Source: Desulfocapsa sulfexigens DSM 10523
GTDB lineage: Bacteria; Desulfobacterota; Desulfobulbia; Desulfobulbales; Desulfocapsaceae
DNA: 32,000 nucleotides
Assembly: GCF_000341395.1 (NCBI RefSeq)
Contig: NC_020304.1
Location: 1,920,001 to 1,952,000, forward strand
Direction of reading: 5' to 3'
Below, piece after piece: positions 10,172-32,000 of this stretch (positions are counted from its first letter, which is position 1; the number at the start of each line of letters is the position of its first letter). Both the position numbers and the translations under genes were made by a program. A model generated the notes under the pieces. The model saw only the letters and a list, made by a program, of their open reading frames with translations. It did not search any database and was not told the DNA's origin.

Positions 10172-12340
10172 ATGACTGAACAGGAAAAATCGAATAATCC
10201 AGAAGAATGGCATATCATAGATGATAGTGACAACCAGGATGATCCCCTTCTTGACTGCCTTGAAATTCTGGCCAAAATATATGACCGTCCTATCTCCAGA
10301 ACGGTATTGCGTGCTGGATTGCCCCTTGTCCATAATCGGTTGACGGTCGAACTTGTTTCACGGGCCACACGTCGAGCCGGTCTTTCCTCACGACTTCTCA
10401 AACGTCCTCTTGATCAGTTTAACACGCATGAATTACCCGCTATAGTGTTGCTGGATAATCGACGTGCCTGTGTAGTAATTAAAGCAGATTCAAGCGATGG
10501 CACTCTGGAAGTAATATGGCCGGAAAGTCAGGGGAGCCAGATTGTGTCCTGTGAAGAACTGGCTGACACATATACGGGATATTCAATTTTTGTCAAACCC
10601 AAATATCGTATTGACGATCGGGGAGTGAGTCATCCAAGGGATCGATCAAAAAACTGGTTCTGGGGGACTGTGCTGACTTCATGGCGGATTTACAGAGATG
10701 TCATTATCGCCTCCTTTCTGATTAATATTTTCGCTCTTGCTACCCCGTTTTTCTTGATCAATGCCTATGATAGAATCATTCCCAATCTCGCTTTTGAAAC
10801 ACTGTGGGTTCTTTCCGCCGGAGTTGCAGCTATTTATTTCTTTGAACTTATCCTGCGAGGATTACGCGCTTATTTTATTGATATGGCAGGAAAAAAATCC
10901 AACCTTGTTTTGTCGTCAATTCTGATGGAAAAAGTGTTCGGTCTTCGTCTGGAGGCTCGCCCGAAGTCCATTGGTTCGTTTACCAAGCAACTTCAGCAGT
11001 TTGAAAGCATACGGGATTTTATTACATCCTTTTCCATTACCGCCCTGGTAGACCTTCCCTTTGCCTTTCTCGCACTCTTGGCTCTCTGGTATGTTGGTGG
11101 ACGTCTGGTGTTGGTTAGTGTCGTATGTATTGTACTTATTCTCATTTATGCATTTATTGTCCAGAGCCCTTTGAGAAAGTCCGTTGGGAAAACCCATAAT
11201 GCAGAGTCCCAAAAAAATGCCATACTCGTAGAGGGCCTGTCAGGCATTGAAACCATAAAAATTTTAGGGGCCGAAAGTAAGATCCAGCGTGCCTGGGAAG
11301 ATTCTGTGAGTTTTATAGCCACCTGGAGTGCACGTACCCGATTTCTCTCCGCGTCAGTCGGGCATGTCGCCCATTTCCTCCAGAATCTCTCTCTCGTTGC
11401 GATTATTATCTTCAGTGTCTATATGATCTCTTGGGGGGAAATGACCGGTGGAGGCCTTTTTGCCTGTATATTTCTCACTCGGCGTGCAACCTCGCCAATG
11501 ACACAGGTCGTGAGTCTGATGACTCGTTTTCATCAAGCACGAAATTCTCTTCAGACTCTGAATAAAATAATGGAACTTCCGTCTGAGCGTCCTACAGAAA
11601 AAGTATTTTTACACCGGACGAGTTTCAACGGTGCCTTAACCCTCGAGAACCTTTCTTTTACCTATCCCGGCGACTCAACGGAAGTGCTGAGAAATATTAA
11701 TTTGCAGATCAACCCTGGCGAGAAAGTAGGCATTATCGGCCCTATTGGTTCCGGCAAGACAACCCTTGGCAAACTCATTCTTGGACTCTATGAACCAAGC
11801 AAAGGAATGGTTGCAATGGATGGTACCGATATCCGACAGATTGATCCAGCAGAACTGCGGAATTTTATCGGCTATGTCTCGCAGGATGTAGTCCTTTTTA
11901 AGGGGAGTGTGCGTGATAATATCGTTCTCGGGACCAGCGATATTGATGACTCAACGGTCCTGCGTGCTGCCAAGATAGCTGGTGTGAGCAACTTTGTGGA
12001 AAAGAATCCGAAGGGTTATGATATGCCGGTGGAAGAGCAGGGGCGCAATCTTTCCGGCGGGCAAAGGCAAGCCATAGCTATAGCCAGAGCGATTCTTCTT
12101 GATCCCCCTGTTTTGCTCATGGATGAACCAACCAGCTCGATGGATAATAGAAGTGAATCAATGATACGGGATAATATGTTGGAGATTTTGCAGAATAAAA
12201 CGACAATCATTATAACGCATCGCATATCATTATTGGAAATCGTTGACAGAATTGTAGTGATCAGCAATGAAACAATTGTGGCTGATGGAACCAAGCAGCA
12301 TATTCTGGAGGCTCTGAAAAACGGCCAATTGTTGATATGA
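10172..12340 (+). CDS. Type I secretion system permease/ATPase (LapB/LssB-like ABC exporter with an N-terminal C39-like domain)
   Basis: 722 aa. N-terminal 'DPLLDCLEILAKIYDRPISRTVLRAGLPL' resembles a T1SS C39-like domain. A six-helix TMD follows. Walker A 'GPIGSGKTT', signature 'LSGGQRQ', Walker B 'LLMDEPTS'. Confidence 0.9.
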   Translation: MTEQEKSNNPEEWHIIDDSDNQDDPLLDCLEILAKIYDRPISRTVLRAGLPLVHNRLTVELVSRATRRAGLSSRLLKRPLDQFNTHELPAIVLLDNRRACVVIKADSSDGTLEVIWPESQGSQIVSCEELADTYTGYSIFVKPKYRIDDRGVSHPRDRSKNWFWGTVLTSWRIYRDVIIASFLINIFALATPFFLINAYDRIIPNLAFETLWVLSAGVAAIYFFELILRGLRAYFIDMAGKKSNLVLSSILMEKVFGLRLEARPKSIGSFTKQLQQFESIRDFITSFSITALVDLPFAFLALLALWYVGGRLVLVSVVCIVLILIYAFIVQSPLRKSVGKTHNAESQKNAILVEGLSGIETIKILGAESKIQRAWEDSVSFIATWSARTRFLSASVGHVAHFLQNLSLVAIIIFSVYMISWGEMTGGGLFACIFLTRRATSPMTQVVSLMTRFHQARNSLQTLNKIMELPSERPTEKVFLHRTSFNGALTLENLSFTYPGDSTEVLRNINLQINPGEKVGIIGPIGSGKTTLGKLILGLYEPSKGMVAMDGTDIRQIDPAELRNFIGYVSQDVVLFKGSVRDNIVLGTSDIDDSTVLRAAKIAGVSNFVEKNPKGYDMPVEEQGRNLSGGQRQAIAIARAILLDPPVLLMDEPTSSMDNRSESMIRDNMLEILQNKTTIIITHRISLLEIVDRIVVISNETIVADGTKQHILEALKNGQLLI

Positions 12341-13746
12341 AAGAAAATTCTGAGATCTCAAAAAATCTGAAGACTTCTCACGGCAGGACCCCTCGCTCGG
12401 TGGAAAAGCAGAAAAAAGGCTTCTTTTTTCAACAACAGAACTCCGATGTTGATTTAATAACCGACATCCGCATGTCGCTCCTGGCTCAGTCTCCACGAGG
12501 TGGCAGTATTATCCTCTGGATAATAGTCATCGTGTTTTTTTGTGCTGTGGCCTGGGCATATGTGGCGGAAGTAGAGGAGGTAACCAGAGCAAGCGGAAGA
12601 GTTGTGCCTGCAAGGCAACTGCAGATCGTACAGAATCTTGAGGGCGGAATTCTCTCCGAGATTCTGGTGAATGTCGGTGATGTGGTGAAACAAGGTCAGC
12701 TCTTACTCCGTATTGACGAAAAGCGTTTTTCCGGACCGTACCGGGAAAGTCGATTTAATTATCTTGCGCTCAAAGCCCAGGTTGCACGATTACAGTCCGA
12801 GACATACTCCACACCGTTTGTGCTCCCGGAGGAAGTGATGGCTGAAAATCCTGAGGTAGGTAACCGGGAAAAGGAGTTATTTGAGTCACGAAAAAAGGAA
12901 CTTGCCCAAACGCTAGGGGTGCTGGAGGAACAAAGTCGGCAACGTGAACAGGAAATCGTTGAACTTGAGGCTAAGATTGCTGAGCTGTCACGGACGCGCT
13001 ATCTGCTTAAAAAGGAAATTAACATGACCCAACCTTTGGTAAAAGGTGGGGCTGTTTCGGAGGTGGAATTCCTGCGCCTGCAGCGTCAGGACAGTGAGAT
13101 GCAGGGAGATATCATGGCTTCACAGCTCGCTCTTCCCAGAGCAAAGTCGAGACTTCTGGAGGCGCAGAAAGGAATAACTGAGGCAAAGCTCAGGTTCTCC
13201 AATAACGCCAAAAAGGAACTCAATGATGCCTATGCAAAACTTGAGGGACTTTCAGCTACCACCGTTGCCTTGGCCGATCGTCTGGACAGGACGGCTGTAG
13301 TCTCACCTGTCAGGGGAATAGTGAATCAAATTTTTATTAATACTGTTGGTGGTGTCATTCAACCGGGTATGAACTTGATTGAAATTGTTCCATTGGAGGA
13401 TACTCTTCTGGTGGAAGCGAAGATCAAACCCTCGGATATCGCCTTTCTTAGCCCTAACCTGAAGGCCACTGTAAAGTTCACAGCCTATGATTTTACACTG
13501 TATGGTGGACTCGAAGCGAAAGTTGAGCATATCAGTGCTGATAGTATCGTCGATAAACAGGGAAACAGCTACTATCTGGTAAATGTCCGCACAACAAAAA
13601 ATTATCTTGGAACTAAAAATGCCCCCTTACCTATTATTCCCGGAATGGTGGCCTCTGTTGATATTCTGACCGGAAAAAAACGCGTCCTTACCTATTTGAT
13701 GAGGCCAATTCTTCGTGCTCAGAGCTTAGCTCTACGTGAGAGGTGA
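12337..13746 (+). CDS. HlyD family type I secretion periplasmic adaptor (LapC-like)
   Basis: ATGA overlap with the ABC gene. Single N-terminal TM 'IILWIIVIVFFCAVAWAYV', a long coiled-coil middle, and the C-terminal 'VDILTGKKRVLTYLMRPI' typical of HlyD/TIGR01843-type proteins. Confidence 0.9.
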   Translation: MKENSEISKNLKTSHGRTPRSVEKQKKGFFFQQQNSDVDLITDIRMSLLAQSPRGGSIILWIIVIVFFCAVAWAYVAEVEEVTRASGRVVPARQLQIVQNLEGGILSEILVNVGDVVKQGQLLLRIDEKRFSGPYRESRFNYLALKAQVARLQSETYSTPFVLPEEVMAENPEVGNREKELFESRKKELAQTLGVLEEQSRQREQEIVELEAKIAELSRTRYLLKKEINMTQPLVKGGAVSEVEFLRLQRQDSEMQGDIMASQLALPRAKSRLLEAQKGITEAKLRFSNNAKKELNDAYAKLEGLSATTVALADRLDRTAVVSPVRGIVNQIFINTVGGVIQPGMNLIEIVPLEDTLLVEAKIKPSDIAFLSPNLKATVKFTAYDFTLYGGLEAKVEHISADSIVDKQGNSYYLVNVRTTKNYLGTKNAPLPIIPGMVASVDILTGKKRVLTYLMRPILRAQSLALRER

Positions 13747-13869
13747 TTTGTCAACACAGGAAAGACCTGAACTCAGGGTAGGTGGATATATATAACGTAG
13801 CCAGCAGTTACTTGATGTCTTCAACTTTGCCGAAATGTACAATAGCAAATTCTACGTAAGAGGTACTTT

Positions 13870-14478
13870 ATGACAATCGTGACCTGCAGTGCAAACGCAT
13901 CAACGCGAGAACGGTGGAGACAGATATTGCAGGGTGACCATCAGTTATTTGAGGTCTCTACCGTGGCGGAACTGAAAGACGTTGTTAAACATCAAGAGAT
14001 AGAACTCATACTTCTTCACCGCTCTATGGTTGATATGAATCTTATCTCCAGTATAACGGAATCACGATGTTTTGTCCTCTCTGATATCCCGGATGATAAT
14101 GAGGCAGTTCTGTTGCTCAAATCCGGTGCTGTGGGGTATGCGAATACGTATGTTTCTCCAGTTCGTCTTAAAGAGGCTGTTAATACAGCCATCAGCGGAA
14201 GGGTCTGGGTCGGGCAGAAACTGATGCAGAAAATCATTCGAGGCACCACTCAAGATATTGACCCAAAAAGTACGGAACCCCCTCCTGAACATAAACTTTC
14301 AGGCCGTGAATGGGAGGTTGCTTTGTTGGTCGGTCAAGGTATGTCAAATCTTGAAATCGCCGCCGAGTTGAATATCTCTGAGAGCACGGTGAAAGCACAT
14401 ATCGGCTCTATTTTTAAGAAAACAAATACCGAAAGCCGATTACAACTGGCACTGTATGTCAAGACACAAACTACCTAG
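13870..14478 (+). CDS. LuxR-family transcription regulator with an atypical (Asp-less) receiver-like domain
   Basis: C-terminal HTH 'LSGREWEVALLVGQGMSNLEIAAELNISESTVKAHIGSIFKK'. The N-terminal receiver-like fold has 'LILLHRSM' where 'LxLLDxxMP' is expected, and it lacks an N-terminal acidic pair. Confidence 0.75.
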   Translation: MTIVTCSANASTRERWRQILQGDHQLFEVSTVAELKDVVKHQEIELILLHRSMVDMNLISSITESRCFVLSDIPDDNEAVLLLKSGAVGYANTYVSPVRLKEAVNTAISGRVWVGQKLMQKIIRGTTQDIDPKSTEPPPEHKLSGREWEVALLVGQGMSNLEIAAELNISESTVKAHIGSIFKKTNTESRLQLALYVKTQTT

Positions 14479-14562
14479 GCTGCCCGTACCACAAGAGCCG
14501 TAGCATTTAATTTCGTAACGGCCTCTCTGGTAACGTATATTCTTTTTAGTCACTGGGAATTC

Positions 14563-16929
14563 ATGGGAATTACTACCTATCTTTTTCACAAATCGAATGG
14601 TTTGGAAAAACAGAGATTTAATATGTTTTTCCTGGATATGGGAGAAAATATCCATTTCCATTACCGGGACCTTAGAATTGAGCTTTCTGTTGGCGAATTC
14701 AAGGAACTGGCAGAACTCTTCAAACTCTACTCCCAGGATGTCCTCAATGAAATTGAGGCAGGATATAAAGATGGTGTTCTGGCGAATACAAATGAGGCTG
14801 GTACGCTCAAGACCTTTTGGGACAAGGAGAAAAAACTTACTTTTCCTGTGAAGTATAATGAACAGCAACTGGCCATTGAAGAGACCAAAGATGGTTTTCA
14901 TCTCCATATTAGAAACTATAAAATTCTCATGGGGAAAGACTCCTTTATTCTCCTTGTAAAGGCTATTGCTCCGATTTCTTCATTGTTGGAAAGTAATGAT
15001 CTGAAACGGGACCCTGTTCAATTGCTGGCAGAAAACGAACTTGGCACAAAACTAATTTCACGATTTCAGACAGAAGGACATGAGGAAATCGTAATTGAGG
15101 TTGATAAAACCTACCGTAACAAAGCAGGGCAGGTGCTTAAGGCGCTTGGCTTTATTCAAGGAGTGGTAGAAAATAGTAGGGTGGCATATAACAAAGACAG
15201 TTCAACTGTTGTTCTTGTACCTCCCGGTTACGCCCCACAAGCTGCCGATATGGTCAGCACCGATACGTCGCTGGATCTGCCGGCTTTTCTCGCCAGGTAT
15301 GGACATGACCTTGATACCACGGATCTTAATCAGCTTAAGCTTAAGATTCTCTCACTCTTGAAAATGGCCGAACAAGGTGGCATCAGACCTTTTCGTTTGC
15401 AGGATCTGTATATCAACAGAAGCTCGCTCAATCCGGCTGTTGATCTCTTTTGTCGCCTTGAGGGTATTGATCCCAAACAGGAAATTGATTCATTTAATAA
15501 ATTGCTCGGTACAAATAAATTATTCATGATCAAACCAGAAAAGGAGCTCTTTCCCCCCGAGAAGCAGGATCAGATTTTCGATGCTTTTTTTGACTTTGTT
15601 ATGCAAAAGCTTGCTCCTCATGAATGTGTGCGCAAAATATATGTCCTGGGTTCCTCAACGAATCGTCGATCCGGTTGTTATAAGGTACCCTTTGTTCATT
15701 TTGACTGGGCAAAGATCAACTCGGATTTTGACATCTATATCGAGCTGGATCCGGATTATGAGGGTACTCTTCCTGAGGAATGGGACAAGAAGTTTTATTG
15801 GGATCGTGCTGGTTGCGATTATTACCATTTTGGTGATGTCGGTGATGGAATGATATCTGAGTATGCTCAACGATATCCTGGTATCCGCTTTTATGAGCAG
15901 CTTGTTGAAGGCTATCTGTTTCATCCCTCGACAGGTGACAAATCCAAAAAGGATAAGTGGTTTGGTGAAGTAAAAGCTCGTTGTATTTTCTCACGAGACA
16001 GGATTGCCGAATGGGTGAATCAGAACTATGAAATCACAGTTCATGAGACGGAGCGGTTTAATGTAGCATCATTTAACCGAGTCTATCATATTTTTTCTCC
16101 TTCGGAAGAATATGTTCTAAAAGTATATGATTCCAAATACCTGAATAAGAAAAATAAAAAGAAGATCGCCTACGAGATTGGTGTTTTGGATTCATTGAAA
16201 GAGTCTGGTCTGGAAGTTGCTCTTCCGTTGAAAAATAAAGCAGGAAAATATATCAGTCAAAAAGATAAGGAGCAGGCAGTGCTCTTTACTTTTGTTCCTG
16301 GTAAATATGTGGCGAAACCGACTCTGGAAGAGAATATGCTTGCCGGGAATTTGCTGGCGCGTTTCCATAATGAGGCGAAGCGTTATAAAACAAAGTATGC
16401 GAAAGTGTACAGCAACAAACAGCTCCTCTTTTACTGGCTCGATTCCTGGCAGGAATACCATGATCAGGGAGGAATCGTAGGAACTGATATCTCTCTGGAT
16501 ATTCCGTACTACACTAAACGTCTGCGAAATTTCAATACTTTCCCGACTCACTGTCATGGCGATTTATCCATTATTAATTATCTCTTTCGCGATGGAAAAT
16601 GCTGGCTGATCGATTTCCAGAGTGTCGGTTATGGACCTGCTCTCATCGATTTGGCAAACGGAATGGTTGAATTTTCTGCCCAGAAAAGGGACTTTTATAT
16701 GGAGAATCTTGAATCCTTCAAAAAGGGTTATGAGAATGTTCGAAAACTATCACGCGCAGAGAACGATTTCCTTACTGATCTTTTAGTCATCCAAATTGCC
16801 GTCAGGCAGGCAAAGCTGTTACGTTTACACTATGGAGGGTTTGGCTATGAATTGAAAGAAGACAGGATCCTTGGATTGCGAATGGGTATCGAAAAATTAC
16901 TAGCTTTGACCGACTCTTGTGGGGAATGA
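14563..16929 (+). CDS. Multidomain protein: unknown N-terminal region, minimal nucleotidyltransferase-like domain, and APH/homoserine-kinase-II-like kinase domain
   Basis: 788 aa. Residues ~355-395 'KIYVLGSS...(22)...SDFDIYIELD' fit the pol-beta NTase G[SG]...DxD pattern. The C-terminus has the kinase catalytic loop 'HCHGDLSIINYLF' and 'WLIDFQ'. The N-terminus has an internal repeat ('NIHFHYRDLRIEL' / 'GFHLHIRNYKILM'). The start codon is uncertain. Confidence 0.65.
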   Translation: MGITTYLFHKSNGLEKQRFNMFFLDMGENIHFHYRDLRIELSVGEFKELAELFKLYSQDVLNEIEAGYKDGVLANTNEAGTLKTFWDKEKKLTFPVKYNEQQLAIEETKDGFHLHIRNYKILMGKDSFILLVKAIAPISSLLESNDLKRDPVQLLAENELGTKLISRFQTEGHEEIVIEVDKTYRNKAGQVLKALGFIQGVVENSRVAYNKDSSTVVLVPPGYAPQAADMVSTDTSLDLPAFLARYGHDLDTTDLNQLKLKILSLLKMAEQGGIRPFRLQDLYINRSSLNPAVDLFCRLEGIDPKQEIDSFNKLLGTNKLFMIKPEKELFPPEKQDQIFDAFFDFVMQKLAPHECVRKIYVLGSSTNRRSGCYKVPFVHFDWAKINSDFDIYIELDPDYEGTLPEEWDKKFYWDRAGCDYYHFGDVGDGMISEYAQRYPGIRFYEQLVEGYLFHPSTGDKSKKDKWFGEVKARCIFSRDRIAEWVNQNYEITVHETERFNVASFNRVYHIFSPSEEYVLKVYDSKYLNKKNKKKIAYEIGVLDSLKESGLEVALPLKNKAGKYISQKDKEQAVLFTFVPGKYVAKPTLEENMLAGNLLARFHNEAKRYKTKYAKVYSNKQLLFYWLDSWQEYHDQGGIVGTDISLDIPYYTKRLRNFNTFPTHCHGDLSIINYLFRDGKCWLIDFQSVGYGPALIDLANGMVEFSAQKRDFYMENLESFKKGYENVRKLSRAENDFLTDLLVIQIAVRQAKLLRLHYGGFGYELKEDRILGLRMGIEKLLALTDSCGE

Positions 16930-17093
16930 AGTATCTGAATGGAGATATTCTTTTTATTGTTGTTTGCGTCCTGGGAACGTATTGGAATATTGAATAATGG
17001 CGTGACTGCCCGATTAAAAGATACAGAAAGTATTCAACATTCGGCCAGTCTGTTATCGAGATTGTGCCAACGTGGAGTAGAGGTGTAGATCCA

Positions 17094-18686
17094 GTGAAGA
17101 GGTTACTCTCGTTACTTTTATTATTCTTGTGCTGCTGCAGTTCAGATGAAGCTGGTAATGACTCCCCATCCACCAGTGTTTCTCGCGAGGTGGATCTTTT
17201 CCCATCAACGCTTGTGGAAAGTTCTGGACTTTATGAGCGAGTGCTCAATTCTAAAATGGAACCCTCCCAGATTCGTTTTATGGCCAAAGATGGTCATACA
17301 CTTACAGCTTATACATATCGCGCCACAGAATTCTCTGTCAGCGATGGACCAATAGTCTTTATTATACATGGTGCTTCTAGAAATGCGATTGATTACCTGC
17401 GTAGATTTATGCCAATTGCTGAACGATACGGAGCCCTCGCAATAGCACCCGAGTTTCCTGAATCGATCTACGGTCCAGGTTCTGATCGCTTCACTCTTGC
17501 CGTCGGGAGTAGAAAGCCGCCCTATACTCGTACCTACAAAGCCAGAGAGTGGCGCACGCGTGATGACTATCTTTACAGTGAGATTGAACATCTGTTTGAA
17601 GCTGTCAAACGGGAATTAAACAGCGGAGAGCCAACCTATCGTATCTGGGGACACAGCGCCGGTGGGCAATTTGTTCATCGTCTGGTGACTTTTCGTTCCG
17701 ATGCCAGGGTTGCTTCGGCGGTTGCGGTTAACGCCGGTTTCTACACTTTGCCGGCTTACGGCAGCGGTTCTGATCCCAATTTCTTTATGCCCTATGGACT
17801 TCAGGGCACTCCATTAAATGCTTACGATGTCAAGCGGTTGCTTGAGGCTCCACTGGTGGTGATGGTGGGTGAGTTAGACACAAAGACTGGTAAAGAATCC
17901 AGGACCGTTCGCGATTCAAGGTATGCTAATTTTCAGGGGTTTAATAGACGGCAGCGAGCAGAGTTTTATTTTCGAATGGGTGAAAGGGAAGCGCGCCGCC
18001 TTGGCCTCGATTTTGGGTGGCGCTTTGCTGTGGTACCTGGGGCTGGACACAACTCCCGCAAGGTTGGCCCTTCAGCGGCTTGGTTTTTGTTTAATCCACC
18101 CGATGCTATTCCCTGTGTATCTACCCCCGCTGAGAATGCCAGAGGTCTGGTGATTAACGAAATTTATGGCGACCCAGCTGGTGGTGTCGCTGGAGATGCA
18201 AATAATGATGGTTTACGTGATGCACAAGAGGATGAGTTTGTTGAATTGGTTAACACCTCTGATCACGATATTTGTCTGAGTGGGTGGTACCTTGGCGATG
18301 CGTCTACCCCTGCGCGCCACCGCTTCCCCGTTGGCAGCCTCTTGCCCAAAGGAAAGGCGTTGGTAGTGTTTGGCGGGGGGGTTCCAACCGGGAAGTTTGG
18401 TGATGCTGAAATACAGACAGCAGTGTCGGCCGGTGAGCTGAATTTGAATAACGCTGGCGACATTCTGTCGCTGTCGGACTCGCACGGAAATTCGTATCAA
18501 CAGCTTTCCTGGGGTGATTGTGGTGGCAAGCAGTGTGCAGGAGAATACCTCTCTCATGCTATCAATAGCAACCAGTCTCTCAGTCGCTGGCCAGATGTAA
18601 ATGGTCCTTTTGTGCCCCATGGTAACATTTCAGGCGGTGCATTGTACTCACCCGGAACGAAGGTAGATGGGACATCTTTTGACTGA
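17094..18686 (+). CDS. Exported (probable lipo-)protein: alpha/beta-hydrolase (PHB-depolymerase/esterase-like) domain plus C-terminal lamin-tail domain (LTD)
   Basis: GTG 17094 gives 'MKRLLSLLLLFLCCCSSDE' (signal peptide with Cys cluster) with GAGG upstream. The ORF is open from 17064. Shows 'IVFIIHGASRN' and the nucleophile elbow 'WGHSAGGQF'. C-terminal 'LVINEIYGDPAG...DEFVELVN' is LTD-like. Confidence 0.65.
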   Translation: MKRLLSLLLLFLCCCSSDEAGNDSPSTSVSREVDLFPSTLVESSGLYERVLNSKMEPSQIRFMAKDGHTLTAYTYRATEFSVSDGPIVFIIHGASRNAIDYLRRFMPIAERYGALAIAPEFPESIYGPGSDRFTLAVGSRKPPYTRTYKAREWRTRDDYLYSEIEHLFEAVKRELNSGEPTYRIWGHSAGGQFVHRLVTFRSDARVASAVAVNAGFYTLPAYGSGSDPNFFMPYGLQGTPLNAYDVKRLLEAPLVVMVGELDTKTGKESRTVRDSRYANFQGFNRRQRAEFYFRMGEREARRLGLDFGWRFAVVPGAGHNSRKVGPSAAWFLFNPPDAIPCVSTPAENARGLVINEIYGDPAGGVAGDANNDGLRDAQEDEFVELVNTSDHDICLSGWYLGDASTPARHRFPVGSLLPKGKALVVFGGGVPTGKFGDAEIQTAVSAGELNLNNAGDILSLSDSHGNSYQQLSWGDCGGKQCAGEYLSHAINSNQSLSRWPDVNGPFVPHGNISGGALYSPGTKVDGTSFD

Positions 18687-18823
18687 CCATCATCAACTAT
18701 AGCAGTTGACGGTATCGCCAAAAGATAAGGAGTAAGAAGCAGCATTTCTTTTTTAACGCTTCCGGGGGAATACAATTTAGCTTGAAACGCGTAATATACT
18801 GCCGTTGAGGTAATTGGGTAAAG

Positions 18824-22217: not shown

Positions 22218-24875
22218 TTACAGAGGCAGTTTGATGTAAAATCGTGTTTCCTCATTGCTCTCTTCCTTGTCGCATTTGACGTCATTGGAGAAACGAACAG
22301 AATCAGAATAACGACAACTCAATAATGCGACCACTTCTTTAAACTCTCTCTCTGTTACAAAACGTGTTTGATAATCTGTTTTACGGTTATCTGTGACAAT
22401 TGGATATAAATGTAAACTTTTATGGAATGCTCCGGAGAGTGTGTCGACACGCAGCTTCGCTATAGCGCTGTAAGGAGGCGCATCGAGCTTGCCATATCGC
22501 CCCTTGGAATTAAACATAAAATTACCGATACTATAAATAAGCCACTGATTGTCATGCTTTTCAATCTCTTGTATCATATGTGCCCCATGCCCGAGAATCA
22601 GATCCGCCCCCTCTTTTAACATGCGCTCCGCCAGTCTTGCCTGGCGATCGCTACGCCATTTGTAATTTGGCCCCCAATGGGGGAACAATACAACAAAGGT
22701 ATTAGCATATTCTTTTCTGACACGCTTAATCTCATTGCGTACACGTTTAAACGAAATCGGGTTCAAACCCCGATCTTTTTCTGAGGCATACATTTTGAAT
22801 GAATCCTTCTTACGGGAGGGACCGGCATACATTGATATCATTGCCAATGTAAATACTTTTCCATCTATTTGACTCTGTGCAATAAATGCTTCACCGGCTT
22901 CGTCAATAGTTGCACCACCACCAAAATATGTAATTCCAGCTTCTTCCAAACTGTGTAATGTCTGGTAGAAACCTTCTTCCCCAAAATCAAACATATGATT
23001 ATTGGCGAGTCCTACCGTACTGATATTATTTGCAAGTAAATGACGAGGTGTTTGTTTTATATCCCCCCAGTGTACCCATGACTTTTGGCCTGCAAACGGA
23101 GAAACTTTCAAGTCGGTAAGAGGTGTTTCGAGATTTGCAACAACCAGATCGGCCTCTTCCAGCATATTCCGGACCTTGGCCAGCGGGGCATCGTACCCTC
23201 TTGCTTTAAGAATGTTTTCCTCCCCATAGCTTTCGTACTGAGCTTGATAATTTTCTCCAAAAGCTGTATCGCCTACAAAGACAACCTCAAACGCGGAAGG
23301 GGTATGCAATTCATTTATTGTCCGGAATGGGGGCGTTCTCTTCTTTTGTTGCTGTTTATATTGACTTTGTGAGCGTTTTTCCTGTGCTTCATTCATCACC
23401 AAACTTTTTTTCCTGATGTTTTTACCTGTCTTTTTAATGGCAGATAAAATCATCTCGAGATTGGCAGTGGAGCGCCTCGACCCCTTCACCCAGAGAATAT
23501 CGCTACCGTGCATTTCCTTCACTACCGCCTTAGCAATATGCTCAGGATCCTCACTGTGTTCTCCTTCCATCGTTTTAGGAAGAGCGTCCCACAAGCCCTC
23601 CAGATCACGGCCTACGGTGAACAACACATTGACCTGGGCATCTATGACATGCGGTGCTAAAGCCGCATGGAGCTGCGCTGAAGTATCGCCAAGCTCTTTT
23701 ATCTCACCCATGATGGCAATACGTCTACCGCCTTTACGTGGTTTTTTAAGTCCCAGTACTGCTAATCCTGCCTCTACAGAGGCAGGATTAGCACTGAAGG
23801 TGTCATCGATGAGTGTAATATCTCCACTGGCCAGCTCAACTGTATATTTTTCGTTATGACGGCTGAGAACGGGTGCCTTTTTAATATCTTCAGCAGCCTT
23901 TATCCAGTCTCCGCCGGCAGCATGAACGGCAGCCAAGGCACCGAGACAATTCATGATACTATGCGTACCGGGCTGGTTCACATGAAATGATATCTCTTGT
24001 TTATGGAAAATAACCCTTACATCACTTGACTCACTATGCAAAGAATAGTCGATTATTTTCATGTCGGCATCTTCATGTGTGCCGAAGGTGATAATGTTCT
24101 TGACGTTCGCGGCTTTTGCATTGGTCAACTGCCGATCAAACAACGTAGCATCATGGTTAAGCACGACAATGCCTTCCGGTTGTAAGGATTTGAATAGCAG
24201 GCACTTCTGGTCGGTTAACTTTTCCAAAGTCCCGTAAAATTGCAGATGATCAGAATGGATATTGGTGATCATGGCTATGTCTGGTCTGATAATGCTAGCC
24301 TTCTTCTCAGTCACATTTGGCAGATCAACGGAAAACTCATAGACACCAAAACGCATATCAGGTGGTGTCTCTGCGAGCATCAGCGGTACCCCCGGTCCGT
24401 GGTTGTAGTTCTTACGGCTTCCCTTTGTCGTACCCTGCTGACACAATAAGAAACGGGTAATCTCTTTTGTCGTTGATTTCCCGGCACTGCCTGTAATTGC
24501 TACGACCGTGCCACGTATCCTGTTACGTGCCGCCTCTCCCAGTGCGTCGAGCGCCTCCCTGGTATTTTTAACCAGAAGCACCGGGTTGTCGCTTCTGTAG
24601 TTTGCAGGTAATTGCCCCGCAACAACCACTGCCGCATGTTTATTGTCGAAAAATGTCTGAATGATTTCGTTGGTATTTTTATATGCAGATGAACGCCAAG
24701 TCTTCGGTTCCGTGGTAATTACCACATCCCCTGGCTCAACCTGTCCTGCATAATAGTTGACTCCTGTAACATGCAAGTCTTCGGGAACCTGTCCAACCCA
24801 TTGACCACCCATAATTGACTGCAGTTCCTGTGCGCTCCATAGTACTGACTTTGTTGCATCTGTGTCAGGTCGCAT
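22218..24875 (-). CDS. Fusion protein: MurF-like Mur ligase (N-terminal ~490 aa) plus CapA/PgsA (PGA_cap, metallophosphatase-like) domain (C-terminal ~360 aa)
   Basis: Mur ligase P-loop 'VAITGSAGKSTTKE', with 'MITNIHSDHL' and 'LIDDTFSANPASV' (compare MurF 'DDSYNANP'). A Lys/Gln-rich linker follows. CapA-type motifs are 'VVFVGDTAFGENY', 'GLANNHMFDFG' and 'LFPHWGPNY'. No TM segment is seen. Confidence 0.8.
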   Translation of the reverse strand: MRPDTDATKSVLWSAQELQSIMGGQWVGQVPEDLHVTGVNYYAGQVEPGDVVITTEPKTWRSSAYKNTNEIIQTFFDNKHAAVVVAGQLPANYRSDNPVLLVKNTREALDALGEAARNRIRGTVVAITGSAGKSTTKEITRFLLCQQGTTKGSRKNYNHGPGVPLMLAETPPDMRFGVYEFSVDLPNVTEKKASIIRPDIAMITNIHSDHLQFYGTLEKLTDQKCLLFKSLQPEGIVVLNHDATLFDRQLTNAKAANVKNIITFGTHEDADMKIIDYSLHSESSDVRVIFHKQEISFHVNQPGTHSIMNCLGALAAVHAAGGDWIKAAEDIKKAPVLSRHNEKYTVELASGDITLIDDTFSANPASVEAGLAVLGLKKPRKGGRRIAIMGEIKELGDTSAQLHAALAPHVIDAQVNVLFTVGRDLEGLWDALPKTMEGEHSEDPEHIAKAVVKEMHGSDILWVKGSRRSTANLEMILSAIKKTGKNIRKKSLVMNEAQEKRSQSQYKQQQKKRTPPFRTINELHTPSAFEVVFVGDTAFGENYQAQYESYGEENILKARGYDAPLAKVRNMLEEADLVVANLETPLTDLKVSPFAGQKSWVHWGDIKQTPRHLLANNISTVGLANNHMFDFGEEGFYQTLHSLEEAGITYFGGGATIDEAGEAFIAQSQIDGKVFTLAMISMYAGPSRKKDSFKMYASEKDRGLNPISFKRVRNEIKRVRKEYANTFVVLFPHWGPNYKWRSDRQARLAERMLKEGADLILGHGAHMIQEIEKHDNQWLIYSIGNFMFNSKGRYGKLDAPPYSAIAKLRVDTLSGAFHKSLHLYPIVTDNRKTDYQTRFVTEREFKEVVALLSCRYSDSVRFSNDVKCDKEESNEETRFYIKLPL

Positions 24876-24937: not shown

Positions 24938-25930
24938 TTACAACTCGAGACCAAGTCGAGAAAAATGTAAGAATGAGGAAATGTTGTGCTGAATATAATC
25001 AATTCTAACTTCATTCTTACGCCGATCATGGCCTCCCCTGACAAAAGAACCATCTGGGAGGCGGAAACCCAACTGTTTGTTTAGGTTGTATTTGATCTGT
25101 TCAATGCACCTTTCACATAACGTTTTATCATCGATAGTATCTGGTCGTTTCAGACGTAAAAAAGCCAGCAGACCTTCTGATCGGCAGGCTATCGGGGTAC
25201 TTCTTTCCCATGAGAGGTATTCGGGATTGTCGAGTATATGGAGTACTATTTTTTCGGCATGGTGATAGTAGAGAGAAGACACTTCATAATTTGACAGGAG
25301 CTCAAGAAAATAAAGCATCCAGTGAGATTGTTCTTTCACCCCATAATCCTCGGGCGCGAGTTCATTCTCAATTTTCCGCACGGCATCATACCAATACTTC
25401 TGTTGTGTTAGCCTGTATAGGGCCACCAGCGCAAATAGTGCTTCACCGGTATAATACATCGAGTGAAATTTGGATATTTTTCCTGACTTAAAATATCGTT
25501 TATGAACTAACCCGTTGTTCTCCATCCGTTGATCTACCATAAACTGTGCAAGTCGCTCAGCAATAGTCAAGAGGAAAGGATCCTGAGTTGTTTCGAATAA
25601 AGAGACCAGAGCCAGGGTGGAAAGGGCATTTCCCCCAAGCTTGATGGTATTGTTTTCACAGATACAAGCGTTGTTGTAGCTACGGTAAAATCTCAAATAG
25701 GTGTCAAGGAGATAATGTGTAGCTTGACGACAACAGTCTAAAATTTTTTTATCAGAAACATCACGATAAACGTCAAGCATTGCCCAGACAGCTCCTGCAT
25801 GACGGAGGACATTGTAACCTTTTAGAGGGCGGGCCTCCTGTGAATCATACCTGTATTTAAAGCTGCCATTTTTCTGAATCAAGTTTGCAAGGCATGCCGC
25901 TCCGGTATGTGCAATCTCAAGTGTATCCAT
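24938..25930 (-). CDS. Hypothetical protein, possibly an (alpha/alpha)-toroid repeat fold
   Basis: 330-aa ORF 62 nt upstream of the Mur-CapA gene on the same strand. Recurrent helix-pair motifs ('LRHAGAVWAMLDVY', 'GGNALSTLALVSLFE', 'YYTGEALFALVALYR') resemble prenyltransferase, LanC or glycoside-hydrolase toroids. The fold guess is weak. Confidence 0.35.
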   Translation of the reverse strand: MDTLEIAHTGAACLANLIQKNGSFKYRYDSQEARPLKGYNVLRHAGAVWAMLDVYRDVSDKKILDCCRQATHYLLDTYLRFYRSYNNACICENNTIKLGGNALSTLALVSLFETTQDPFLLTIAERLAQFMVDQRMENNGLVHKRYFKSGKISKFHSMYYTGEALFALVALYRLTQQKYWYDAVRKIENELAPEDYGVKEQSHWMLYFLELLSNYEVSSLYYHHAEKIVLHILDNPEYLSWERSTPIACRSEGLLAFLRLKRPDTIDDKTLCERCIEQIKYNLNKQLGFRLPDGSFVRGGHDRRKNEVRIDYIQHNISSFLHFSRLGLEL

Positions 25931-26046: not shown

Positions 26047-26259
26047 TTATTTTCTCGGTTCCATTAATGTGAGAATGACACTGGTCCGGTCTTCTGGGTT
26101 AGGCATACCTCCTGGGTTGAACCATCTGTCCAGCAACAGGTAAGGGCCTCTGTCTCCCTTTAGAATCGCTCCCACATTCTGCCACCTGGTCTTCTCGTTA
26201 CCTTCATGGTCTTCGTAAGTACCAAGCGGAATTGCAACATCATACATTTTCTTGGACAT
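26047..26259 (-). CDS. Small conserved-looking hypothetical protein (70 aa)
   Basis: GGAG 8 nt upstream of the ATG. 'GNEKTRWQNVGAILKGDRGPYLLLDRWFNPGG' looks like a folded small protein. I recognise no family. Confidence 0.45.
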   Translation of the reverse strand: MSKKMYDVAIPLGTYEDHEGNEKTRWQNVGAILKGDRGPYLLLDRWFNPGGMPNPEDRTSVILTLMEPRK

Positions 26260-26583: not shown

Positions 26584-28248
<1,665 letters not shown>

Positions 28249-28739: not shown

Positions 28740-28860
28740 TCAAGGAAATCAGTTCAATAAGGTTACCCATGAAGCTGGGCTGCTTGGAACTCGGTAGTGT
28801 GGAGGATTTCTGCATACGCCACCTGGACCTCTTTGAGAATCACAAAGGAAACCTGGCTAT

Positions 28861-30819
28861 TCAGTTCAGCTCGGTGGGGTTATCAAGGTAATATCCCTGA
28901 ATACCGTCGATATTGAGATCACACAATGCCTGATACTGCGCTTCTTCTTCTACCCCCTCGGCAATAACCAGGATATCAAGGCTATGAGCCACACCGGTCA
29001 ATGCACCAATGAAGAAATGATTGTTACTGTCTTCTTTGAGTTCATCAATGAAGGCTCGATCTATTTTGACATATCTGGGCTGTAGGGATTTTAAATACCC
29101 AAAATTGGCAAAACTCTGCCCAAAATGATCAAGGCCGACAAAGTGCCCTAATGCTTTTACCTCTTTTGCAAAATCCTGGAGAATATTCAGTTCTTGAGTC
29201 GCATTAAACTCAGCAAATTCAAAGATGATCCTCGGTGCTCCCGGAGGCATTTGTTTGAGGCTGGATAAAAGCCAGGCGGTAAACGATACATCTTTAAGGG
29301 AAGATGGAGAAATATTGACAGCAAGTTCATTGGAGTGCAACTTTCCACTATCAACAAGCATCGCTTTTTCAATGACGATTTTGTCGATAGAGGATATACA
29401 CCGTAGTCGTTCTGCCAGGGGGATGAAGATGCCGGCATTAAGCATTTGACCTGTCGGCAAGGGTATCCGCGCTAAAATTTCCCTATGCATAAGCTGTTTC
29501 AAGTTGCTGCTCATGACCACGGATTGGCTAAACAGAGTAATATCTTTATTGTCCAGGATCTGGTTCAGAAGAAGCTTCCATTCGTGCTCTCCACGTGGGG
29601 TAATGGCAGGTTCAGCGGAAAGTAATTCAACGATCCAGGTGTTTGGTCCCTGGTTTTGTGCTGCTCTCAAAATTTGATCGGCCTCGGAGAGCAGTTCCTT
29701 AAGGGATGTCACTTGTTCATAAATGACACCTCCTACATGTCCAACGTTTTCAGAGGACCCAACGTCTTCAATGGCCAAGCTGGCAAAGCCTCTGGTTATT
29801 GCTGCGGCTACATGACGTGCATCTTCCTCTGTAACATCCGGTAAAAAAACTGCAAAACTGCCTCCTGAAATATGTGCGAGTGCGGAATTTTTCAGCCCTC
29901 GTGTCGCTTCACGAATACAGTTCGCAACCTTCTGGAGGAGTTGGTTTCCGCGTAAATACCCTTTTTCCTGGTTGAGCTCCAGGAGATTATGAACCTGGAC
30001 AAGTAAAAATGCTCCCTTAATAGAAGCGGTATCACTCTTATCCATTCTAGCCGCCACCTGTCCCTGCAGGTAGCGCCTGTTGCCTAATCCGGTCAAAGCA
30101 TCACTATAGGCATTTTTCCTCAATCTGTTCGCCACCCGCGCCTGTTCATCGAACATCTTTTTCACTTTAGCGGTCATGCTATTCATCGCAACAACAACCC
30201 GTCGCAGTTCACGGGTTCTCGGGAGCTTCTCTTGGAATGTGTACTGTTTTTTGCAGAGGGCCTCTGCCTGCTGTTCAACCCGCCGTAAAGGCTTGAGCAG
30301 GGCTCGCAAGCCAAGGGCGCCCAGCACTATCACAATAACACCTGTAACGCCAAAAATTTTTGTCATATTACAGATGGCTTCCCAGAGTGTTTTATAGGCA
30401 TACCCCGGGTGACTTTCCACATAGAGACTGCCTCTCTGTGTCCATCCTGCAGTTAGCAGTGTACTGGCACCTGGAGTTTTTAAGGGGACAGCTCTTATAA
30501 ACCAGGCCGGAACATCGTTGATAATGACCTTAAGGGTTCTATCTATATGGACTGTATCATCCAGGTCAGTGAGCCGAATTGTACGATAATACCCACGATC
30601 AAAAACAACATTGATCATGGTTTCGATTGTAGCCATATCGTTCTCAGCAATATAGGGGGTGATCGATAATCCTAGAGAGGTTGCTGTATCCTGGGCATGG
30701 GATTCGAGCTGGTCTTCAAGAAAAGAACGTGTACCCTGGAGTTTGATGATCCATGTACAGGTGAAAAGAACAAAAAAGAGTACTAATGTAAATATGAGCA
30801 GTTGTCTGTAAAGTGTCAT
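28861..30819 (-). CDS. lapD: LapD-like inner-membrane c-di-GMP receptor (LapD_MoxY_N periplasmic domain, HAMP, degenerate GGDEF, EAL-like)
   Basis: The N-terminus 'LYRQLLIFTLVL...EDQLESHAQDTATSLGLSITPYI...GYYRTIRL...VPAWFIRAV' is collinear with P. fluorescens LapD as I remember it. 'PRTRELRRVVVAMNSM' marks the HAMP region. 'SGGSF' replaces GGDEF. The EAL region has 'EIL', 'DHFGQSF' and 'AEGVEEE'. Confidence 0.85.
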   Translation of the reverse strand: MTLYRQLLIFTLVLFFVLFTCTWIIKLQGTRSFLEDQLESHAQDTATSLGLSITPYIAENDMATIETMINVVFDRGYYRTIRLTDLDDTVHIDRTLKVIINDVPAWFIRAVPLKTPGASTLLTAGWTQRGSLYVESHPGYAYKTLWEAICNMTKIFGVTGVIVIVLGALGLRALLKPLRRVEQQAEALCKKQYTFQEKLPRTRELRRVVVAMNSMTAKVKKMFDEQARVANRLRKNAYSDALTGLGNRRYLQGQVAARMDKSDTASIKGAFLLVQVHNLLELNQEKGYLRGNQLLQKVANCIREATRGLKNSALAHISGGSFAVFLPDVTEEDARHVAAAITRGFASLAIEDVGSSENVGHVGGVIYEQVTSLKELLSEADQILRAAQNQGPNTWIVELLSAEPAITPRGEHEWKLLLNQILDNKDITLFSQSVVMSSNLKQLMHREILARIPLPTGQMLNAGIFIPLAERLRCISSIDKIVIEKAMLVDSGKLHSNELAVNISPSSLKDVSFTAWLLSSLKQMPPGAPRIIFEFAEFNATQELNILQDFAKEVKALGHFVGLDHFGQSFANFGYLKSLQPRYVKIDRAFIDELKEDSNNHFFIGALTGVAHSLDILVIAEGVEEEAQYQALCDLNIDGIQGYYLDNPTELN

Positions 30820-30834: not shown

Positions 30835-31701
30835 TTATTGTATACTGGCAGGCATTCTCTCAAGCAGGTCATTCCATAATTTGAGTCTGTCACTTTTTCC
30901 CACCAGGTCACCTCTGCCTCGCTCTTTTGCCAGCCACAGTCCAGCACCATTGAAACTGTATACAGGAAGCAGGTCTGATCTTTGTGTTGCTGGCTTAATG
31001 GCATTGATAAGATTATCGAGAACCAAAGGCACAGCAGTGGGTGTTTTATAATAGGTAAGCACCATATGACTTTGATTTAATTTCCAGGCCTTAACATACG
31101 TCAGGGTAAGTTTTTTCTCAGGAACCCCCAACATCTTCAGAGTAAAATATTTTGAAAGGGCAAAATCTTCGCAGTCGCCGCCATCACTTGCAAGAAACTC
31201 TACCGGAGTGGCCCAATAATCTTTTTTTGACCAATGTATTGCATCACTGACAAAATTGAGTTGATTAAAGAATCTGTTTACTTTTTCCAGCTTTTCAATA
31301 TCGGTACGACTCGTATCTTCACGGACAAACTGCTGCCAGGCCAGAAGTCTTTTTCTTGCATCAACACCATATTTATCCTCAGCAGTATCGAGTAAAGATG
31401 AATCAAGTGTGAAAATTTCGTTGGCTGAGGCAATCTGGCCTGCAAAAAAAAAGAGTAAGAACACAAATGCGAAGGGTAGTAGAGTGTTGTTGGCAAATTT
31501 GAGGACGGAGCTACTGCGGGAAAGGACTAGTTGAATAATTGTTAATGGTGCGTTAACGGAATTTAATACAATTGCGCCATATCGATTGCTGGATCGGCTC
31601 TGCAACAAACCGTTGCCATCAATCATGAGTAAATCCCTGAAGTATAACGGGATACAATAAATACGGTCCTCAAACTGGCCATCCATTGTATCCCGCTTCA
31701 A
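30835..31701 (-). CDS. lapG: LapG-like periplasmic transglutaminase-like cysteine protease (BTLCP, peptidase C93)
   Basis: 'DGGDCEDFALSKYFTLKMLGV' holds the catalytic Cys, 'QSHMVLTYY' the His and 'LVLDNL' the Asp. Signal-like 'LLPFAFVFLLFFFAGQIASA'. The start is uncertain: TTG 31701, ATG 31686 or ATG 31626. Confidence 0.85.
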   Translation of the reverse strand: MKRDTMDGQFEDRIYCIPLYFRDLLMIDGNGLLQSRSSNRYGAIVLNSVNAPLTIIQLVLSRSSSVLKFANNTLLPFAFVFLLFFFAGQIASANEIFTLDSSLLDTAEDKYGVDARKRLLAWQQFVREDTSRTDIEKLEKVNRFFNQLNFVSDAIHWSKKDYWATPVEFLASDGGDCEDFALSKYFTLKMLGVPEKKLTLTYVKAWKLNQSHMVLTYYKTPTAVPLVLDNLINAIKPATQRSDLLPVYSFNGAGLWLAKERGRGDLVGKSDRLKLWNDLLERMPASIQ

Positions 31702-31721
31702 TCCAAAAAATCTTTTTTATC

Positions 31722-32000
31722 TTATTGCTTTTCTGATACAACAAGAGGGCCAATAGATACCTGACTCTCTTCTGGCCACTCCTTATCAAAAGACTTAACC
31801 AGTTGTCCCAAACCATTCAAAATACGGTATTGGGCGTACAATCCATCATATCTGGCTTCAACCAGAGCTCGTTTGGCGTCAATGACCTCGGCCTCACTAT
31901 CAAGAACATCAAGTAAAGTCCGTTTGCCAAGATTAAATTGTTTGGTATATGCATCAGCAGTACCGGTGGCAAAATCGACTCGTTGCTCCAGATAGTTAAT
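31722..32000 (-). CDS. TolC-family type I secretion outer membrane protein (LapE-like), C-terminal 92 codons; 5' end outside the window
   Basis: This is not in the supplied ORF track. My translation of the minus strand from 32000 is 'INYLEQRVDFATGTADAYTKQFNLGKRTLLDVLDSEAEVIDAKRALVEARYDGLYAQYRILNGLGQLV...SEKQ*', with TAA at 31722-31724. This is the typical C-terminal repeat of TolC/TIGR01844 proteins. Confidence 0.8.
   Translation of the reverse strand: MNYLEQRVDFATGTADAYTKQFNLGKRTLLDVLDSEAEVIDAKRALVEARYDGLYAQYRILNGLGQLVKSFDKEWPEESQVSIGPLVVSEKQ

Follow-up and report, generated by a model that had tools for sequence, protein, structure and literature searches.

A predicted Lap-type secretion locus of Desulfocapsa sulfexigens with a gene-encoded poly-aspartate cargo and a cargo-linked enzyme cassette

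Introduction

Lap systems, described in Pseudomonas fluorescens and, as DvhA, in Desulfovibrio vulgaris (PMC10990149), combine an ABC exporter with a C39-like domain, an HlyD adaptor and a TolC-type channel with a BTLCP protease (LapG), a LapD receptor composed of LapD_MoxY_N, HAMP and degenerate GGDEF-EAL domains, and a cargo that carries a retention module and a di-alanine site. All of these parts are shared by a locus of Desulfocapsa sulfexigens DSM 10523 that lies within the 32,000-nucleotide stretch analysed here (contig NC_020304.1, positions 1,920,001 to 1,952,000; hereafter the window). The cargo, in contrast, lacks the Ig-like, RTX and vWA repeats of adhesins; its body consists of a Thr/Pro linker and 256 aspartate (Asp) residues, and it is accompanied by ligase, CapA and toroid enzymes. 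Judged from sequence, the body of the cargo is the only testable feature in which export and retention at this locus depart from a Lap system.

Poly-L-Asp is also the backbone of cyanophycin, which CphA1 produces with an amide ligase of the Mur-ligase fold acting on carboxylates (PMC9262961, PMC9427784). The window shares both features, and a syntenic locus from a relative (L199; loci from other genomes carry L numbers) fuses a CphA-like N+G(+M) unit to a MurF-like/CapA unit. However, the backbone in the window is gene-encoded and ribosomal, its product is proposed to be exported rather than stored as granules, the ATP-grasp G domain and a cyanophycinase are lacking, and the ligase is MurF-like rather than CphA-M-like. 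PgsBCA and CapBCA likewise pair a Mur-superfamily amide ligase and a CapA/PgsA (PGA_cap) protein with an acidic poly-amino acid, whereas the window has no PgsC, PgsE or membrane anchor, its ligase is not of the PgsB type, and both parts are fused and cytoplasmic. Because these defining parts are missing, the locus is neither a cyanophycin nor a Pgs system.

Two individual proteins also invite comparison. The CapA domain shares the PGA_cap/calcineurin-like fold of MslH (8gq9; PMC10406935), a Ca-dependent epimerase of the C-terminal Trp of a ribosomal (lasso) peptide, and has residues that align with its catalytic His/Asp dyad and metal ligands; the similarity amounts to only ~50 bits, and an epimerase role in the window is putative. 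PahZ1 (6ve6, 9o7u) is a periplasmic enzyme that hydrolyses synthetic poly-Asp at its beta-Asp amide bonds (PMC4456602, PMC13017698). It shares its alpha/beta-hydrolase fold, GHSAGG motif and extracytoplasmic location with a window protein that is, by contrast, fused to a lamin-tail domain (LTD), lipid-anchored and encoded beside a natural poly-Asp gene. The arrangement of a gene-encoded substrate beside tailoring-type enzymes and a dedicated exporter follows the logic of ribosomally synthesised and post-translationally modified peptides, and the biosynthesis of peptide natural products draws on MslH-type as well as tRNA-dependent transferase families; here, the substrate is a protein of 554 amino acids (aa), and up to at least 956 aa in relatives, with a homopolymer core instead of a short leader-core peptide.

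We estimate a probability of roughly 0.45 that the locus is a composite system around a ribosomal poly-Asp protein whose Asp side chains are decorated and which is exported by its type I secretion system (T1SS), displayed at the cell surface and released under the control of cyclic di-GMP (c-di-GMP). Searches of the accessible full-text literature turned up no account of a T1SS cargo with poly-Asp, nor of the set of enzymes. What would be new is the combination of a Lap system with a homopolymeric cargo and a tailoring cassette linked to that cargo, together with two apparent links to poly-Asp chemistry, namely the PahZ1 homologue (E 1e-36) and the cyanophycin-synthetase-like fusion in L199. 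There is a substantial chance that the chemistry is categorically new.

Results

The cargo gene (26584..28248, minus strand) encodes a 554-aa protein that matches the LapA retention module NF033682 at 66 bits (cut-off 50). The module is followed by a TAAG site at aa 122-125, a (TTTP)n/(TETP)n linker, the Asp tract and a short acidic tail ending in HLVEPPTETF, and the ATG is preceded at 6 nt by a GGGAGG ribosome-binding site. Translation and codon counting gave 256 uninterrupted Asp codons (26713..27480, minus strand; aa 257-512), comprising 148 GAT and 108 GAC that are interleaved near-randomly with a maximum same-codon run of four. This codon mix looks like anti-slippage selection with the perfect homopolymer kept. 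Since the codons are scrambled and the C-terminal motif 3' of the tract is kept in frame among relatives, the tract appears to be selected at the protein level. Readings of the tract as a DNA microsatellite or as part of another reading frame were ruled out by the scrambled codons, by the N-terminal HMM (hidden Markov model) match and conserved C-terminus in the Asp frame, and by the ribosome-binding site.

The length of the tract varies widely, with 108 Asp in L002, at least 107 in L204, where the contig ends inside it, 426 in L199 and 621 in the 956-aa protein of L008. In L085 (12068-14036), the N-terminal module is 99% identical to that of the window and the Thr/Pro linker is shorter, while the tract comprises 123 + 264 Asp (~390); hence tract length differs between near-identical strains. 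Tract length evolves fast. The predicted LapG cleavage site reads TAAG in the cargos of the window, L002 and L008, and PGAG in L200.

A Pfam scan of the 554-aa cargo returned no domain, and the RTX/Ca-binding repeats of adhesins were not found. The original prediction for this DNA had proposed a complete Lap module re-purposed for a non-adhesin cargo. The cargo is indeed no classical repeat adhesin; the label 'non-adhesin', however, is unproven, as the protein could itself bind mineral surfaces as a poly-Asp brush. In the more distant loci L201 (6668-7762) and L012 (~5000-6300, minus strand), the acidic protein is not a pure homopolymer but contains segments rich in D/G as well as repeats of the (DDM)n or (DDK)n type; these proteins adjoin a two-ABC T1SS without LapDG.

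Open reading frame (ORF) listing and HMM scans recovered every gene that the prediction had named, and the Lap set is complete in the window: ABC exporter, membrane fusion protein, TolC fragment, LapG and degenerate LapD are all encoded, as is a cargo in which a retention module is combined with a di-Ala site. The LapB/LssB-type T1SS ABC exporter (10172..12340, plus strand) matches TIGR03375 at 917 bits (cut-off 693) and, in Pfam, ABC_tran, ABC_membrane and, for its N-terminal C39-like domain, Peptidase_C39 (2.3e-10). With a 4-nt overlap, it is followed by the gene for a LapC/HlyD-type periplasmic adaptor (12337..13746, plus strand; TIGR01843 406 bits, HlyD_3), an adjacency kept in L001, L058, L200, L202 and L203.

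On the minus strand, the LapD-type inner-membrane c-di-GMP receptor (28861..30819) carries LapD_MoxY_N (PF16448, 3.8e-46), HAMP, GGDEF and EAL domains, and matches NF045673 at 522 bits, under its cut-off of 1020. Both output domains are degenerate, as expected for LapD, with the GGDEF motif absent and EIL replacing EAL; c-di-GMP binding is predicted. The neighbouring LapG-type periplasmic BTLCP Cys protease (30835..31701, minus strand) matches Peptidase_C93 (PF06035; 1.4e-15, 57.9 bits, cut-off 27) and NF045674 at 243 bits, under the equivalog cut-off of 320. Candidate Cys, His and Asp residues and a signal-like segment were found by eye, and the true start is probably internal, before this hydrophobic stretch. 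The TolC/LapE-type outer-membrane protein is represented by its C-terminal 92 aa (31722..32000, minus strand; TIGR01844 5e-17), being clipped by the window edge; in L006, L200, L202 and L203 the corresponding OEP gene is complete.

The plus-strand arm runs from 10172 to 22164 (ABC, HlyD, LuxR regulator, APH protein, hydrolase-LTD lipoprotein, two 342-aa paralogs, DUF2156) and the minus-strand arm from 32000 to 22218 (TolC end, LapG, LapD, a 612-bp gap at 28249-28860, cargo, 70-aa protein, toroid, Mur-CapA), and they converge at 22164/22218 as predicted. The 612-bp gap is non-coding in the window; in L199 (6048-6569), L202 (8969-9493) and L203 (9261-9782) a Sel1-repeat gene (~173 aa) stands there, before the poly-Asp gene. 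An Rfam scan found no c-di-GMP riboswitch or other RNA, and promoter and terminator scans gave counts not above those of shuffled sequence.

To place the locus among relatives, we searched with the Mur-CapA fusion, the toroid protein and the retention module as anchors, and scored the fetched loci by tblastn and an acidic-run scan. Twelve loci with a toroid homologue at least 43% identical and the flank present were evaluable (L001, L002, L005, L008, L012, L014, L058, L059, L199, L200, L204, and L010 joined with L203, both from the same metagenome-assembled genome, MAG); L013 and L017 were left out because the flank is missing. An uninterrupted poly-Asp run was found beside the enzymes in 12/12 of these loci. 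In L201, which also has a PahZ1-like gene, an Asp-rich (DDM)n protein replaces the pure Asp run. Among ~50 other loci of the same scan, only L025 (Berkiella) showed a poly-Asp run.

Altogether, no fewer than 13 independent loci from four proteobacterial classes combine a poly-Asp gene with a toroid protein, at least one MurF-like ligase and a CapA/MslH-like domain, whether or not Lap genes lie next to them. The taxa comprise Desulfobulbales (L001, L058, L200, L204 and L010+L203, with toroid identities of 59-86%), Sulfuricella in the Betaproteobacteria, Rhodospirillaceae (L012) and other Alphaproteobacteria (L059), and Berkiella in the Gammaproteobacteria. This comparison of gene neighbourhoods bears out the expectation that the intervening genes co-occur with the poly-Asp gene in relatives.

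The prediction had further described the Lap genes as two halves that bracket the other genes, an arrangement that did not hold in L001, L200, L202/L203 or L014, where the gene order differs. In L001, cargo-p70-toroid-MurCapA faces LTD-APH-LuxR-HlyD-ABC, followed by p109 and then LapD (p70 and p109 being the 70-aa and 109-aa proteins described below). The Sulfuricella order (L014/L006) is poly-Asp ... TolC-LapG-LapD-APH-Mur-MurCapA-beta-lactamase-fold-toroid-DUF2156, and L012 has two ABC genes and one HlyD gene. The bracketing layout is incidental and specific to the genome of the window.

What follows the poly-Asp gene is a core of toroid, Mur ligase(s) and CapA, plus p70 in Desulfobulbales; optional genes that nevertheless recur are those for the PahZ1-like hydrolase, the pseudo-receiver LuxR, the APH protein, DUF2156 and the Fem-like proteins. 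Constancy of the accessory genes was confirmed for toroid, Mur ligase and CapA, but not for the Fem-like and DUF2156 genes, which are variable and absent in L001, an 82%-identical relative. In L002, L008, L199, L059 and L005, no Lap or T1SS gene lies within ~7-10 kb of the core cassette; the first three are delta-type MAGs in which the fetched flanks hold no such gene. Because the core stays with the poly-Asp gene even there, the cassette belongs to the cargo and not, as had been implied, to the Lap machinery as an accessory set.

The family is under-annotated and largely hidden in protein databases, because the tract disrupts assembly, leaving broken or chimeric contigs (L001, L014, L058, L202, L203, L204), and gene callers choose the reverse poly-Ile/Val frame (L199:7449-8942, L204:1-448). 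In L001 (1-1767), the Asp run continues into an AT-rich stretch that looks eukaryotic. As contigs break in the tract, a protein search with the retention module yielded only four matches, all of them module fragments; two of the contigs were looked up and both were in Lap/T1SS contexts. A reverse scan of metagenome contigs for 30 consecutive GAY codons returned mostly short pure-GAT, apparently eukaryotic microsatellite contigs, the informative hits being only L085 (same species) and L096 (toroid 28%).

The core includes a protein that is 100% identical to a D. sulfexigens entry at NCBI. It is an 885-aa fusion (22218..24875, minus strand) of a MurF-like ATP-dependent amide ligase (aa ~8-482; Mur_ligase_M/C) and a CapA/PGA_cap domain (aa 531-789; 6e-53, 180 bits), without signal peptide or membrane anchor and with PDB matches to MurF (4cvk) and MslH (8gq9). 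The ligase aligns with MurF over its full length, N-terminal domain included, scores 334 bits with NF010693, below the MurF cut-off of 544, and is at most ~32% identical to housekeeping MurF/MurE-F proteins; its P-loop GSAGKSTTKE is intact and conserved across the family. It differs from CphA1 in scoring 33 bits with the CphA model TIGR02068 (cut-off 850) and in the absence of ATP-grasp. A PgsB model was not among its 24 NCBIfam matches, nor was a PgsC-like ORF among the annotated window genes. For the CapA domain, MslH is the sole solved relative; residues ANLE, NNH..D and GHGxH align with the MslH E44, N87/H88/D91 and H295 region, and such residues are general to the metallophosphoesterase fold.

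A second kind of ligase is found in L199, where the order is poly-Asp(426)-p70-toroid, a beta-lactamase-fold gene and then a gene for a 1758-aa fusion protein (12330-17606). Residues 19-775 of the latter match cyanophycin synthetase at 575 bits (cut-off 877; model positions 1-758/871), covering the N domain, ATP-grasp and part of M, and are followed by a MurF-like ligase (897-1370) and CapA (1410-1668). We know of no report describing this architecture. The fusion ties the module to poly-Asp chemistry, and the presence of the MurF-like ligase beside the CphA-like unit indicates an extra step and not an equivalent of the CphA M domain. The cyanophycin synthetase link and the PahZ1-like nature of the hydrolase had both been missed in the original prediction. 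Near the L199 fusion lie another CapA gene and two genes of the beta-lactamase/DD-peptidase fold; genes of this fold occur inside the cluster in L006 (11728-12855) and L199 (11125-12225 and 19048-19989) and are absent from the window.

The 330-aa cytoplasmic toroid protein (24938..25930, minus strand) is modelled as an (alpha/alpha)6 barrel (AlphaFold2, AF2, pLDDT 97). Foldseek retrieved GH76 and AGE/cellobiose-2-epimerase-type barrels with TM values of at most 0.74; these matches are generic (alpha/alpha)6 barrels from which no specific function could be assigned. The protein has 526 homologues. Its gene always adjoins the ligase/CapA genes, and in L004 and L019 the toroid is fused to CapA and YheCD ATP-grasp in one chain. 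Between toroid and Mur-CapA genes, L204 (2506-5958) encodes a 974-aa fusion of DUF2156 (LPG_synthase_C) and RimK ATP-grasp together with a 157-aa SET-domain protein; the fusion suggests that lysine-containing or oligo-acidic branches are handled.

The 70-aa protein (26047..26259, minus strand) is 76-94% identical in L001, L002, L008, L010, L058, L199 and L200, and thereby more conserved than any neighbouring enzyme; L204 has a 70-aa ORF in the same position. Its single-sequence model is all-beta (pLDDT 73) and found no Foldseek match, and the protein matches the phage family phrog_18187 (E 2e-8). Our guess is that it might be an SSB-like binder of the polyanion. A 109-aa protein (9535..9864, minus strand) is encoded divergently from the ABC gene, outside the range covered by the original prediction, and has no family match. 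L001 and L058 encode it at the equivalent site with 70-79% identity, ORFs of 108-109 aa stand there in L202 and L203, and it is probably part of the system.

The variable genes lie on the plus strand. The first encodes a LuxR/GerE regulator (13870..14478; GerE 1e-17) that aligns partially with NarL and lacks a Response_reg match. Its pseudo-receiver has His at the position of the NarL phospho-acceptor Asp, which confirms the Asp-less regulator of the prediction. The gene stands between the HlyD and APH genes in L001, L058 and L200; in L203, HlyD likewise has a GerE gene as its neighbour, but the sequence is truncated on that side. The second encodes a 788-aa cytoplasmic protein (14563..16929) that had been read as a nucleotidyltransferase (NTase)-kinase. 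Its C-terminal APH/homoserine-kinase/CotS-like kinase domain was recovered (PF01636 5.5e-13; NF003558 76 bits), whereas the possible NTase in the N-terminal half consists of a GS...DxD motif seen by eye only. Homologues occur in L001, L058 and L200, and after LapD in the Sulfuricella-type L013/L014 (27-29% identity).

The lipoprotein gene (17064..18686, plus strand) encodes a lipobox (LLFLCCC), a PahZ1-like hydrolase domain and an LTD (7.6e-18). The best PDB sequence match of the hydrolase is poly(aspartic acid) hydrolase-1 (6ve6), followed by 9o7u (6.6e-32). Its nucleophile motif GHSAGGQFVHR is identical to that of PahZ1, and it is predicted to act on Asp-Asp bonds. Homologues are present in L001, L010, L201 and L204. 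No mention of a natural or native substrate was found when the text of the PahZ1 paper from 2026 was searched. In Nitrosomonas MAGs, a PahZ1-like homologue (39-41% identity) lies directly upstream of a stand-alone CapA gene (L046:8273-11044, L047:8292-10963, L062:8947-10963); it is full-length with LTD in L046/L047 and consists of the hydrolase part only in L062, and poly-Asp, Mur and toroid genes were undetected nearby. PahZ1-like genes less than ~5 kb from CapA were also seen in L023 and L026.

Downstream follow two 342-aa putative Fem/GNAT-type transferases (18824..19852 and 19885..20913, plus strand), tandem duplicates that are 76% identical; L010 has a single copy. The 'Fem-like' label is supported only via remote relatives; the paralogs themselves have no direct Pfam, NCBIfam or PDB sequence match. 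The family has 112 representatives, and of 62 relatives scanned, nine matched Acetyltransf_6, four FemAB_like, one LPG_synthase_C and one Leu_Phe_trans. The arm ends with a DUF2156/LPG_synthase_C-type (MprF C-domain-like) transferase (21247..22164, plus strand; PF09924 1.1e-14), which has homologues in L010, L013, L014, L059 and L204, one L204 copy being the RimK-type ATP-grasp fusion mentioned above.

Discussion

An Asp homopolymer offers carboxylates only, so poly-Asp would be the acyl donor if ATP-dependent amide ligases use it, a role for which the poly-Asp backbone of cyanophycin synthetase provides a precedent (PMC9262961). In the composite system that we propose, the cytoplasmic ligase(s) would activate the beta-carboxylates of the tract and add amino acids or dipeptides as isopeptide branches, in the manner of cyanophycin synthetase. 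CapA may epimerise the added residue, whose free alpha-carboxylate would resemble the C-terminal Trp substrate of MslH, and DUF2156/Fem-type enzymes, where present, could lengthen the branches from aminoacyl-tRNA. After export by the T1SS, the retention module would plug the TolC-type outer-membrane channel as long as c-di-GMP-loaded LapD sequesters LapG; a drop in c-di-GMP would lead to LapG cleavage at TAAG and shedding of the polymer. Outside the cytoplasm, the PahZ1-like lipoprotein may trim or debranch beta-Asp amide bonds. From the properties of poly-Asp, we speculate that the product could serve as a tethered polyanionic or charge-tuned brush for mineral or metal binding or against encrustation. 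The Lap steps of this scheme draw on established knowledge of the system and on family membership, whereas all modification steps are predicted from gene content.

More tentatively, the Asp tract may be a gene-encoded template for a branched poly-amino acid. It would amount to a ribosomally templated counterpart of cyanophycin, with amino acids loaded onto hundreds of Asp side chains by MurF-like ligases, joined in certain lineages by enzymes of the CphA-like, RimK-like and tRNA-dependent kinds. CapA would make D-forms, the T1SS would export the product for c-di-GMP-controlled tethering and shedding at the surface, and PahZ1-type hydrolases would act as natural trimmers or recyclers.

Several points weigh against decoration of the tract. 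Its modification is deduced from the surrounding genes, and we know of no precedent for a T1SS that exports branched chains. The ligase substrate could be other than Asp side chains, because the domain scores far higher with MurF than with the CphA M model (334 vs 33 bits) and is additional to the CphA-like unit in L199. The toroid fold, as modelled, resembles glycoside hydrolases and sugar epimerases and is unexplained by the proposed scheme, and the poly-Asp ORF of L005 has a Sec-type signal and no retention module. To our knowledge, PahZ1 has been described solely in bacteria that degrade synthetic poly-Asp, with the synthetic beta-linked polymer as its substrate. Finally, distant modules of CapA/ATP-grasp/toroid with Mur in L019, L022 and L004 have neither poly-Asp nor Lap genes, so the enzymes can act without a ribosomal scaffold. 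In L019 (9884-15429), such a module consists of a 1365-aa CapA-YheC/D ATP-grasp-toroid fusion and a separate Mur ligase beside FeoB and a U-box/ankyrin protein; similar modules were also seen in Rickettsiales- and Legionellales-type MAGs.

These scaffold-free modules favour the rival that retains most weight, though we regard it as unlikely: the poly-Asp protein would stay unmodified, and ligase, CapA and toroid would make a separate non-ribosomal polymer of the cyanophycin or poly-gamma-glutamate type, for example a counter-polymer or an anchored capsule. PgsB and PgsA are an established pair of Mur-family ligase and CapA protein for a free polymer, and the nearly full cyanophycin-synthetase-like unit of L199 could polymerise alone. 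However, neither PgsC-type membrane subunits nor a polymer exporter besides the T1SS were seen in the window, and the Mur-CapA protein has no membrane anchor. In addition, the closer-clade enzymes stand beside a poly-Asp gene in every evaluable locus, even where the export genes are elsewhere.

The full-length alignment with MurF and the beta-lactamase-fold genes of L006 and L199 would also fit protection of the producer, in which the enzymes act on by-products of the synthesis of 256 consecutive Asp, such as aborted acidic peptides or Mg/Ca chelation, or, in view of the MurF-like, Fem-like and DD-peptidase-like genes, remodel peptidoglycan precursors to make the envelope tolerant of the polyanion. 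Protection would also accord with the loss of stability that acidic stretches cause in bacterial ribosomes (PMC9718836, PMC11162784). We nevertheless consider protection improbable: the ligase is too distant from housekeeping MurF/MurE-F proteins (see above), the Fem-like and beta-lactamase-fold genes are inconstant, and the PahZ1 and cyanophycin-synthetase links point at poly-Asp itself.

Slightly less probable again is the view that the cassette modulates secretion, retention or c-di-GMP signalling as an accessory of the Lap machinery and does not act on the cargo. It would account for the L013/L014 arrangement, where the APH protein and ligases directly follow TolC-LapG-LapD on one strand, and for the LuxR and APH genes that always stand beside HlyD/ABC in Desulfobulbales loci. 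Against it, the core enzymes remain with the poly-Asp gene in the five loci whose fetched flanks hold no Lap/T1SS gene, and we know of no such genes in the Lap loci reported from Pseudomonas, Vibrio, Shewanella or Desulfovibrio, for which literature searches likewise yielded no matching account. A chance neighbourhood of unrelated genes on an island, for which the shuffled gene order might speak, can practically be dismissed, since the same families recur beside poly-Asp genes across the four classes despite that shuffling.

If the cargo is indeed decorated before export, the system would connect ribosomal synthesis to the kind of ligase reactions that build cyanophycin, poly-gamma-glutamate and peptidoglycan. 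The locus offers a natural context and, if the proposal is true, a natural substrate for poly(aspartic acid) hydrolases. The Lap paradigm would extend from adhesins to a homopolymeric polyanion whose length varies between near-identical strains (256 vs ~390 Asp). Poly-Asp is an industrial antiscalant and mineral binder. An encoded, secreted and possibly tailored form in sulfur-cycling sediment bacteria would therefore be of ecological interest, with regard to mineral attachment and anti-encrustation, as well as of biotechnological interest. The translation of 256-621 consecutive Asp is itself notable given the destabilising effect of acidic runs on bacterial ribosomes (PMC9718836).

Two further features of the window lie upstream of the locus and are probably unrelated housekeeping genes. 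Positions 3337-4797, 5 kb upstream, hold efp and an EpmA/GenX-like gene, and positions 7324-8766 encode an HhH-GPD glycosylase that is, unusually, fused to an Exo_endo_phos (Xth-like) nuclease.

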